Of a DNA stretch of 33,981 nt, positions 3,016-4,833 are shown one piece after another. How positions within the stretch are numbered: the first letter of the stretch is position 1; each line of letters begins with the position of its first letter. A model generated the notes under the pieces. That model made no database searches. It was given only the letters and a program-made list of their open reading frames with translations, and was not told the origin of the DNA. This stretch comes from a virus. Its lineage: Duplodnaviria > Heunggongvirae > Uroviricota > Caudoviricetes. The position numbers were made by a program, and so were the translations under genes. Where the stretch lies: IMG/VR virus record IMGVR_UViG_2563366983_000010; one strand, 5' to 3'.

Positions 3016-4833
3016 TCAGTACCGAATCATACCAACATCCATTTCAGGTGAATCCACTAACCAGAAATTTTCTGGTTTTAGCGTCAGGATTATCCAGGCT
3101 GTGTTTGTTGTTGATGGCCACGGAGGTAGCACATCATAGGTTGGATCATCACATGAATCTCTGTAACCAAACTTATTAAAAAGCGGGGCCATTGCAGCAA
3201 TGAGATTCACTGCATTCAGCTCGTTACCCAGTTTGCGCTCAAACAGTGCCACGCCCGCAGTTCCTTCCACCCACACGCCGCGACTGTGACCACTGTAACC
3301 GTAGTCAGGGTGATACGGTGTATAACCTGTTGTTTCCCGCGTGCCAAATAAAAAACGCCCCATGTACTTACGACATCTTGCTGCTTTCCCGGTATCTATA
3401 TTGGCTATAAACAATCCTCCCCAGGAAGATTGATCCAGTGCTGCCGCGTTGTCATAGTGTGTTGGATGCACCCCCTGACGGAATCGTCCCTCTTCTTCCA
3501 CCCACATCCCCCTGATGATGCTTTGCGCCAGTTTTTCTGCACGTTTGGTGAAACCATCAAATCCCAGCCGCCCCATCAGTTCAAACAAAAACCAGATATC
3601 TACGTTGTGCTCCAGTGCGCACCATTCAGCAACAAAACTGGCGTCAAATTCGCCATTTACATAACGACCAAGGCCGCCTTTATATAAACCTTCTCTCAGG
3701 TCACCTTCTGTTGTCACAAGGAAAGAATCAAGCCAGACAATGCCGGATAACAACTTTTCCCGAACAATATTTACCTGCGCTCCGTCCGGATATTTCTCCA
3801 GATAAAAGGCCAAAGCATAATAAACCCATGCCGCATTCCCCAGGCGGTAATAGGTACGCGGTGACATGGCCGACAGCCTGTTAACAAAAAACTTTACTCC
3901 ACCGTTTTCATCAACAAGCGCACACAAGCCCGCAACGTATCTTTCTACAGCCTCATGTCGCTGAACCATCAACGCCAGTGCTGCCAGCGCCTGGTCATAC
4001 GTGTAACACCGATCTTTCATCACCCTGATCACTTCGGGGTCTGCGTCCTCCGGCATCCAGTAGCTACGAATGAGCAGTGGAAACTCCAGCGTTGTGATCC
4101 ACGCATTATCCTCAATCCGAATAAGACGAAACTGTTTTGCTCCCGTCCAGCAACGTCTGAAATAGAAAGTTCCGTCACTATTCAAATTAGCGTCGCCGTT
4201 AAAATACTCTCCGGTTGTATAAGCATACATTTCGACTTTATACTTTTCTGGTTCAGAAATATCGCAATATCCGTTAACTTCACCGACATAATTAAAATCG
4301 ATATTTTCTTTTATTTTTAAAGATATTGATGTATCAACAACCTCGGGTTGTTCCAGTTTCAGCATGGCTGTCGTGCAACGGCTGAGTATGTCAGTAAAAT
4401 TTTCGTAACGCAGACCGGATATATTCCCGGCTATGTTTTGAATAGCTTCCAGAATCTTTACTGCTTGTTGGGATGATGATGCCGCCGTATCTGCATTTTC
4501 CTGCACCTTGTCTGCCAGTTCTTCGAATCTGCGCAAAGATTCTGGTCGTAAGTCAATTTCAGTTGCTCCCAGAAAATCATTAAGTGAACCATCGCGCGAA
4601 TCCATATAGACCCGAATGACCCCGATTTCTGCAAGGCGCTGTGAACTGTGTGTCAGACGAACACTATATACTCCGGGCAGCACGGGGAAATCATATTCAC
4701 CGCTCAGAGTGGTTACGTGACTGTAAACACCTCTCAGGATCCCGGGTTGATTGTGTAGTGAGGTCAGGGTTATTGTTGCTCCGCTCAGCGGTTCTCCCAC
4801 AGGGGATGTAATTATACCTTTAAGCTGCGGCAT
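3016..4833 (-). CDS. Tail fibre / tailspike-like protein, 605 aa: Stf-like N-terminal anchor plus aromatic-rich C-terminal globular domain (putative enzymatic)
   Basis: N-terminus (GIITSPVGEPLSGATITLTS...GVYSVRL...GSLNDFLGATE...RPESLRRFEEL) resembles the N-terminal domain of lambda Stf-type side tail fibres. Start ATG at 4831-4833 overlaps the last codons of the Tfa gene, with a GGAG RBS. GC content is visibly lower than in neighbouring tail genes. Confidence 0.6.
   Translation of the reverse strand: MPQLKGIITSPVGEPLSGATITLTSLHNQPGILRGVYSHVTTLSGEYDFPVLPGVYSVRLTHSSQRLAEIGVIRVYMDSRDGSLNDFLGATEIDLRPESLRRFEELADKVQENADTAASSSQQAVKILEAIQNIAGNISGLRYENFTDILSRCTTAMLKLEQPEVVDTSISLKIKENIDFNYVGEVNGYCDISEPEKYKVEMYAYTTGEYFNGDANLNSDGTFYFRRCWTGAKQFRLIRIEDNAWITTLEFPLLIRSYWMPEDADPEVIRVMKDRCYTYDQALAALALMVQRHEAVERYVAGLCALVDENGGVKFFVNRLSAMSPRTYYRLGNAAWVYYALAFYLEKYPDGAQVNIVREKLLSGIVWLDSFLVTTEGDLREGLYKGGLGRYVNGEFDASFVAEWCALEHNVDIWFLFELMGRLGFDGFTKRAEKLAQSIIRGMWVEEEGRFRQGVHPTHYDNAAALDQSSWGGLFIANIDTGKAARCRKYMGRFLFGTRETTGYTPYHPDYGYSGHSRGVWVEGTAGVALFERKLGNELNAVNLIAAMAPLFNKFGYRDSCDDPTYDVLPPWPSTTNTAWIILTLKPENFWLVDSPEMDVGMIRY

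Follow-up and report, generated by a model that had tools for sequence, protein, structure and literature searches.

Gene content of the locus

The stretch of DNA analysed here (the window; 33,981 nucleotides of virus record IMGVR_UViG_2563366983_000010) is a Mu-like prophage of Escherichia coli whose minus strand carries, in order, homologues of gp44-gp48, a 253-residue fibre gene, a Tfa gene, a gene for a 605-residue protein, com and mom. The subject of this work is the 605-residue gene (3016..4833, minus strand), which the open reading frame (ORF) listing gives as intact and complete from an ATG start, and whose product is a putative second receptor-binding protein (RBP) that combines an Stf-type anchor with a predicted (alpha/alpha)6 barrel. 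The gp48 homologue is recognised by Pfam PF10076 and by a PDB match to Mu gp48 (9ki1, E 3e-21), and annotation of the prophage in E. coli KFu019 also backs the gp44-gp48 assignment. Pfam identifies com (PF10122) and mom (PF25680), and the host gene that flanks the prophage at 1..1725 we take, from its translation, to be the phosphoethanolamine transferase gene eptB.

The 253-residue protein (5371..6132, minus strand) is a Mu-type tail fibre, assigned as the primary RBP at the gp48 docking site, and over its N-terminal 81 residues it resembles Mu tail fibre protein S (5yvq/9ki1, E 6e-25). Because this fibre and its gp48 dock are separately present, the 605-residue protein would be a second, additional tail protein. 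Between the two genes lies Tfa, the tail fibre assembly protein (4820..5368, minus strand; PF02413, E 2e-23; phrog_136). Inspection of the Tfa end reveals that the ATG of the 605-residue gene (4833-4831) falls inside the final Tfa codons, the Tfa stop TAA occupying 4822-4820. The resulting 14-nt overlap (4820..4833, minus strand), taken from the ORF coordinates and the sequence, is a signature of translational coupling, and a Shine-Dalgarno GGAG stands 7 nt 5' of the ATG within the Tfa coding sequence (4841..4844, minus strand). A sigma-70 promoter scan found no promoter for the 605-residue gene; since Mu late promoters are activator-dependent, this negative carries little weight.

Tfa as chaperone of the 605-residue protein was considered and rejected, as the homologue in phiSTEC1575-Stx2k has no adjoining Tfa and the usual partner, a fibre, is present upstream. 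No chaperone gene lies downstream of the 605-residue gene, where com comes next. Given the Stx2k-phage homologue, Tfa pairs with the upstream fibre and is most likely its chaperone.

The order fibre, Tfa, 605-residue gene, com and mom was compared with that of Mu, which has its G segment and gin at this point. There is no room for a gin ORF between com and the fibre genes, and the annotation of the near-identical prophage in KFu019 lists no invertase. The inverted repeats found are short and at chance level, and the window holds no second or alternative S'/U' fibre set. With gin, a second fibre set and long inverted repeats all absent, a Gin-type inversion switch was rejected, and the 605-residue gene is placed at the U'/S'/gin position of Mu. 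The spacer between this gene and com (2879..3015, minus strand) is 96% identical in strain FDAARGOS_943 and forms the conserved right flank of a swappable slot. Both the coupling to Tfa and the occupation of the G-segment position had been proposed in an earlier note drawn from the sequence, and both stand.

The 605-residue protein matches PHROG tail-fibre families 13714, 7032 and 4128 (E 9e-271 to 2e-158), those covering the C-terminal module being annotated solely as 'tail fiber protein', and its 98.6%-identical KFu019 counterpart is annotated 'prophage tail fiber N-terminal domain-containing protein'. All four peptides quoted in the earlier note are present, at residues 333, 408, 467 and 519, and the aromatic richness it described for the C-terminal 400 residues is borne out: Trp, Tyr and Phe make up 14.7% of residues 206-605, compared with 11.5% in Tfa and 5.5-6.8% in five tail or baseplate proteins from the window, the 253-residue fibre among them. 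The lower GC content, read by that note as a property of this gene, is correct relative to the baseplate genes (46.9% versus ~59%; GC at third codon positions 0.44 versus 0.67-0.70) but not relative to Tfa (45.7%), the fibre gene (50.7%) or com (39.9%). As these neighbours are equally GC-poor, the low-GC block is the entire distal host-range region and not the 605-residue gene alone.

An Stf-type anchor and a presumed coiled-coil stalk

Sequence comparison assigns the N-terminus to the side-fibre anchors of lambdoid phages. The Pfam family 'Prophage tail fibre N-terminal' (PF08400) is recognised in residues 5-126 with 84.6 bits (cutoff 26.6; E 8e-24), and phmmer searches of the PDB return Ur-lambda gpStfN (9e7m, E 2.5e-6) and, over residues 3-137, the collar spike gp40 of the Vibrio myophage XM1 (7kjk, E 2.5e-4). 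The lambda Stf N-terminal domain (residues 1-94) folds as a six-stranded antiparallel beta-sheet followed by a helix, and in Ur-lambda twelve copies of it form a collar at the gpV-gpM junction that bears four trimeric fibres (PMC12617516). A full-length AlphaFold2 (AF2) model of the 605-residue protein reached a mean predicted local distance difference test score (pLDDT) of 67, and secondary structure alone was taken from it. It places strands at residues 3-7, 20-25, 36-40, 46-50, 54-61 and 68-75 and a short helix at 84-87 (pLDDT 62-86 across the block), so that the predicted layout of six strands and then a helix matches that of lambda. PF08400, phmmer and AF2 together delimit a collar or anchor domain at residues 1-94 (4552..4833, minus strand). 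Behind it the same model shows a long helix at residues 97-135 (4429..4545, minus strand; low pLDDT as a monomer), presumed to be a trimeric coiled-coil stalk and resembling the coiled coil behind the anchor in lambda Stf and XM1 gp40.

The resemblance of the first 120 residues to the lambda Stf attachment domain had been predicted and is confirmed; the accompanying view that such an anchor is unexpected on a Mu-type tail survives in part. The chimera is real, but it is not unique. In XM1, a 100-residue domain attaches six gp40 trimers to the neck, and behind it come a coiled coil and a C-terminal domain resembling a tailspike (PMC10457771). This homologous anchor on the neck of a myophage is a structural precedent for the presence of an Stf-type anchor on a contractile tail. 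In addition, 48 of 5,426 complete E. coli genomes have a related anchor (~76-87% identical in nucleotides) immediately next to a Tfa gene. The five of these loci that were inspected all have Mu-like surroundings and the same 14-nt Tfa overlap, and their cargo varies: a 1,037-residue protein plus a DUF4376 protein in ETEC1732, a 468-residue protein plus a DUF4376 protein in FDAARGOS_943, truncated pseudogenes in TD225-C4 and RIVM_C019217, and the 605-residue form in KFu019. This Mu-like lineage carries the Stf-type anchor as a constant component and not as a one-off chimera.

The C-terminal module is predicted to be an (alpha/alpha)6 barrel

Residues 128-605 have no sequence match in Pfam (to E<=1), NCBIfam or the PDB (phmmer). 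Profile searches of the PDB with two alignments of the module, A1 and A3, gave nothing significant, only a cellobiose 2-epimerase at E ~0.5 and RAD14 noise. Glycoside hydrolase (GH) family GH15 was absent from these profile searches and from Pfam scans of 29 and 57 relatives; the 57 multidomain relatives carried scattered partner domains (RHS, Gp5_C, phiJL001 hub, CBM5/12 and PG_binding).

An AF2 model of residues 140-605, based on the 12-sequence alignment A1, reached a pLDDT of 83.7 and a predicted template modelling score of 0.87. In the numbering of this C-domain model, to which 139 is added for full-length positions, a helix (7-20) precedes the strands of a beta-sandwich (32-112) and a helical barrel (127-446). 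In the full-length protein, the helix and small beta-sandwich ahead of the barrel correspond to residues 146-248 (4090..4398, minus strand; AF2, pLDDT mostly 80-96) and the predicted glycoside-hydrolase-like (alpha/alpha)6 barrel to residues 266-585 (3079..4038, minus strand). Twelve helices are modelled as the double barrel that characterises the six-hairpin glycosidase superfamily. The closest structural matches were a dextran dextrinase (9ju0, 30.4), the endo-mannanase MmpH (7qsj, 27.8) and a GH15-related enzyme (5z3a, 27.0), followed by many alpha/alpha-barrel proteins (GH76, GH8, GH15, GH63, GH88, phosphorylases and 2-epimerases). Foldseek agreed with these matches, and the top 60 structural matches include neither a phage protein nor a beta-helix. 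Of the only four viral structural matches in BFVD at E<=1e-3, a single one is strong (E 2e-18), and none of the four is informative on function.

The model and its structural matches together uphold the prediction of the earlier note that the module is an alpha/alpha barrel and not a beta-helix. The beta-helix of tailspike depolymerases is not seen, as residues 266-585 are helical in the model, and the prediction for residues 140-605 likewise shows no sign of the non-enzymatic fibre fold that the note had named as the result that would overturn it. The barrel is therefore predicted to have the six-hairpin glycosidase fold, but at the level of sequence it fails to join GH15 or any other Pfam GH family.

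Conserved residues and predicted catalysis

An exhaustive HMMER search gathered the barrel family as 840 cluster representatives at E<=1e-3, or 473 at E<=1e-10, and conservation was measured over 92 aligned distant members. Sixteen residues are 90-100% conserved (Y279, D280, R330, G332, E408, H409, D412, W444, D461, L466, D467, W471, W521, E523, G524 and W580), and all sixteen are also invariant in every phage copy. Several are acidic, in keeping with the catalytic acids that the earlier note had suggested looking for. D280, together with Y279, stands at the start of inner helix 1 as assigned by DSSP and is a candidate acid of the active site (3994..3996, minus strand; 98-100% conserved). The motif E408-H409-N410-x-D412 (3598..3612, minus strand) supplies candidate catalytic or substrate-binding residues, its E, H and D being 99% conserved and invariant in alignments A1, A3 and A5. 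D467 lies in an L466-D467...W471 motif (3433..3435, minus strand; 99-100% conserved), and E523, within W521-x-E523-G524 (3265..3267, minus strand; 100% conserved), is a candidate general base or nucleophile.

In the model, the conserved residues map to the N-terminal ends of alternate helices (139-151, 192-208, 268-283, 326-338, 383-395 and 436-446 in C-domain numbering). Glucoamylase-type barrels have their active-site funnel at such helix N-termini. In MmpH, catalysis depends on an Asp early in the barrel (D47) and a Glu late in it (E262) (PMC9883506). By analogy, we infer that D280 and E523 are placed comparably to this pair, and E523 also to the catalytic base of GH15.

These observations bear on whether the barrel cleaves or simply holds its ligand. 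RBPs often reuse enzyme-derived folds purely for binding, the GH family cannot be assigned by sequence, and catalysis is predicted here from fold and conservation; a tail-attached adhesin with a non-catalytic, lectin-like barrel that binds glycan without cleaving it would account for these points. Such a domain would, however, have little call for D280, E408, D412, D467 and E523 to be invariant across all phage copies and across cellular homologues that are presumably enzymatic, or for the strong purifying selection described below, and we regard a purely binding role as unlikely while giving it real weight. It appears less probable still that the barrel is an enzyme of another kind than a GH15-type hydrolase, such as a polysaccharide lyase, an unsaturated-uronyl hydrolase or an epimerase- or isomerase-like catalyst acting via the conserved His409.

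The module is an exchangeable cassette

Comparison with related prophages locates the boundary at which anchor and module were joined. Nucleotide similarity to phiSTEC1575-Stx2k starts at residue 134 and that to the prophage of E. coli MB06101 at residue 143. Both breakpoints adjoin the pentapeptide RYENF (residues 142-146; 4396..4410, minus strand), the conserved start of the mobile C-terminal module, which adjoins a recombination junction zone at residues 134-143 and is kept across modules joined to different anchors. The module is 91% identical in amino acid sequence to the lambdoid copies, whereas the anchors are only 35-40% identical. FDAARGOS_943 presents the converse case: the fibre gene (first half only), Tfa together with the anchor to residue ~114, and the com-side spacer are shared with the window, but the cargo is not.

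Of 5,426 complete E. coli genomes, 41 carry the module. Word-indexed homology searches gave mostly close enterobacterial copies. Across the relatives collected, it stands behind N-termini of families PF08400, PF12571, PF18668, PF25613 and PF03406 and behind N-termini without a Pfam match, as short forms in one jumbo phage and one 114-kb plasmid record, and at ~29% identity in minor tail proteins of Microbacterium phages and in Thermus phages. Judging from these sequences, the segment from residue ~134-143 to 605 is a swapped mobile cassette that is found behind at least five different tail anchors. The mosaic breakpoints thereby bear out the cassette acquisition postulated in the earlier note. 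Because cargo is swapped in the slot where Mu has U'/S'/gin, host range in this lineage would vary by replacement and not by inversion.

In E. coli MB06101, a truncated DUF4376 fragment (positions 4892-5002 of locus L005) lies directly 3' of the 608-residue barrel homologue and looks like a scar left when the barrel module displaced a cassette of fibre tip plus chaperone. In phiSTEC1575-Stx2k, a 99-residue hypothetical gene (positions 7831-8130 of locus L002) lies 3' of the barrel homologue and has no counterpart in the window.

The ratio of nonsynonymous to synonymous substitution (dN/dS) for the module is 0.08 at a synonymous divergence (dS) of 0.6-0.7; by this sequence measure, the module is under strong purifying selection. 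The same figure bears on the suggestion that the prophage is cryptic and the gene an inert relic in it, without current function, a notion encouraged by the several related Mu-like prophages that hold just a truncated pseudogene in the slot. Against it stand the low dN/dS, the intact ORF with its Shine-Dalgarno sequence and coupling, and the position of the gene within a complete-looking Mu-like structural gene set, which together leave the relic hardly credible.

Cellular homologues and exopolysaccharide loci

Of 21 stand-alone cellular members of the barrel family, most start with a hydrophobic, signal-peptide-like segment, several with a lipobox-like cysteine. Two Myxococcales homologues lie in operons with the order TPR protein, HEAT protein, GT2 synthase, unknown protein and barrel. 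A locus scan, limited to one genome per species, yielded 65 barrel loci from many phyla, and a homologue of the Myxococcales GT2 lay within 8 kb of the barrel in 28 of them, mostly at 35-50% identity (full-length matches at E 1e-74 to 1e-136); short contigs account for many of the other loci. Since the scan was seeded with a narrower alignment, A6, this neighbourhood statistic is biased toward stand-alone exported members. The genomic context of one further homologue, P0289, revealed nothing informative.

The GT2 belongs to the processive PgaC/IcaA/BcsA/NodC class, although its score of 142 bits is below the PgaC equivalog cutoff of 422, and the TPR protein shows a weak similarity to porins of the PgaA and YaiO types. 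Loci with both barrel and GT2 often also encode TPR porin-like proteins, HEAT-repeat proteins and a conserved 395-residue protein of no assigned function. They apparently represent an uncharacterised synthase-dependent exopolysaccharide locus. This is the setting of synthase-dependent exopolysaccharide glycosidases, which supports a polysaccharide-active role for the barrel family. The phage copies are just 25-33% identical to these cellular members, so that the assignment transfers to them only weakly.

The cellular kin also lend some appeal to a different role, in which the protein is a non-virion 'moron' enzyme of the prophage that acts on the envelope or exopolysaccharide of the lysogen, or at lysis: these homologues are exported enzymes of exopolysaccharide loci, and the gene lies at the prophage end, adjoining the accessory genes com and mom. 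A moron would not, however, be expected to carry a bona fide tail-attachment domain in place of a signal peptide, to be translationally coupled to the late tail operon, or to share its module with five other tail fibre or spike anchors and with the canonical Stf slot of phiSTEC1575-Stx2k. We consider this role very improbable.

Neighbouring sequence features

Several features near the slot and elsewhere in the window were also recorded. Within the 137-nt spacer between the stop of the 605-residue gene and com, positions 2925-2952 form a perfect 11-bp inverted repeat, GACGATCGATA-N6-TATCGATCGTC, with two GATC sites, which is possibly either a hairpin resembling a terminator or, as in Mu, a Dam-sensitive com/mom control region. 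As listed, the com ORF (70 residues) and the mom ORF (TTG start at 2757) overlap by 92 nt (2666-2757), and com homologues are annotated as shorter (186 nt). Translational control of mom by com is known in Mu, and the overlap is consistent with it. Just outside mom, positions 1944-2008 hold three direct copies of TTTGATAC in 65 nt, with six in the window versus 0.79 expected; these are candidate transposase-binding repeats of the prophage right end, near the presumed eptB. Among the baseplate genes, the gp45-like spike gene (8220-8756) has a GC content of 51.6%, compared with ~59% in its neighbours, a deficit that may point to exchange of this gene as well.

Proposed role of the 605-residue protein

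Taken together, the explanation that we favour, with somewhat better than even confidence, is that the 605-residue protein is an accessory second RBP whose barrel binds and hydrolyses a host surface polysaccharide, and that it is encoded by a cassette swapped into the slot between Tfa and com. The domain layout is given by the comparisons and models above, and from it we infer the further steps. The Stf-type collar domain (residues 1-94) would dock the protein on the virion, with the neck as the candidate attachment site by analogy with myophage XM1, and the helix at residues 97-135 probably forms the trimeric coiled-coil stalk. The barrel appears to resemble the inverting alpha-glycosidases of the GH15/GH125 clan, with a predicted funnel lined by the invariant Y279/D280, R330, E408/H409/D412, D467 and E523. 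Barrels displayed in this way would bind, and probably hydrolyse, an enterobacterial surface polysaccharide, giving access to the receptor of the Mu-type fibre. Host range would then be changed by replacement of the cassette in the fixed Tfa-com/mom slot and not by DNA inversion. A bolder version, in which the barrel is the founding phage member of an unclassified GH family, its cellular kin are the dedicated glycosidases of a widespread, uncharacterised exopolysaccharide system with a PgaC-like synthase, and the protein is a neck-mounted collar spike of a contractile Mu-like phage that degrades a conserved matrix or envelope polysaccharide of enterobacteria and not an O or K antigen particular to a serotype, is doubtful in that full form and offered as speculation.

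If the barrel is an enzyme, a family that has neither a Pfam model nor a characterised member would widen the range of folds to be considered in depolymerase prediction and phage engineering. The locus itself resembles a natural plug-and-play arrangement, with a fixed, Tfa-coupled anchor, an RYENF junction and exchangeable cargo in place of the Mu inversion switch. The link of the cellular homologues to a PgaC-like synthase offers a lead both to the substrate class and to a new exopolysaccharide system. Finally, given copies in Shiga toxin (Stx)-converting prophages and in prophages of enterotoxigenic and Shiga toxin-producing E. coli, the glycan that is targeted may be relevant to how phages spread among pathogenic strains.

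Comparison with known systems

The nearest relative by architecture of the attachment region is lambda Stf, with which the 605-residue protein shares a homologous N-terminal domain of ~90 residues, followed by a linker and a helical stalk. In the lambdoid phage phiSTEC1575-Stx2k, the classical Stf slot behind J and lom encodes a homologue that is 78% identical over the full length of the protein. The distal parts differ, being a long fibre with a T4 gp37-like, OmpC-binding tip in lambda Stf and a predicted beta-sandwich and (alpha/alpha)6 barrel here. Lambda Stf is paired with a downstream Tfa, in contrast to the 605-residue gene, which has Tfa upstream and com downstream. The protein also belongs to a contractile, Mu-type tail, and its anchor is just 35-40% identical to those of the lambdoid copies. 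XM1 gp40 is closer as regards the tail, as it likewise belongs to a contractile-tailed phage and joins a homologous N-terminal domain (~100 residues) through a coiled coil to a C-terminal domain of globular or enzymatic type. Its C-terminal domain, however, is a tailspike like the Det7 tailspike protein (TSP) gp208 in place of the alpha/alpha barrel. In XM1, gp40 is attached to the neck as six trimers, at the tail terminator and head-completion proteins; for the Mu-like prophage, the neck is a candidate site.

With the G segment of Mu (S/U and S'/U'), whose gene organisation is given in PMC11915804, the slot shares its position between the fibre/Tfa genes and com-mom and its purpose of diversifying host range. 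The means differ: Mu uses Gin inversion, and the lineage of the window replaces the cargo behind a fixed anchor.

On the enzymatic side, the barrels of the GH15 clan (9ju0, the endo-alpha-mannanase MmpH of 7qsj, glucoamylases and glucodextranase) are just 9-13% identical to the module, and the barrel family has motifs of its own relative to that clan, namely YD, EHNxD, LDxxSWG and WxEG. The barrel is likewise preceded by a beta-sandwich and a helical linker in bacterial GH15 enzymes and in dextran dextrinase (PMC12446779). The synthase-dependent exopolysaccharide glycosidases of the BcsZ/PssZ type belong to a different sequence family from the barrel.

Beta-helix tailspikes of the P22 TSP type share the modular plan of an anchor followed by a C-terminal glycan-active domain, but the 605-residue protein is not predicted to be a beta-helix. 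To our knowledge, the phage depolymerases characterised so far almost all have a beta-helix or beta-propeller fold. DepoCatalog lists 129 Klebsiella depolymerases with experimental validation and describes them as beta-helix enzymes, and no alpha/alpha-toroid phage depolymerase was found among solved structures or experimentally characterised examples; a search for literature linking the six-hairpin fold to tail fibres, or on the Stx2k phage, likewise found nothing relevant. The alpha/alpha-toroid fold accounts for ~1% of predicted phage depolymerases (PMC11326577) and for <1% in Klebsiella prophages (PMC12491483), as fold predictions only in both studies. Set beside these systems, the combination of a lambda-type anchor with an alpha/alpha barrel is predicted to be a rare design for a polysaccharide-degrading phage spike.

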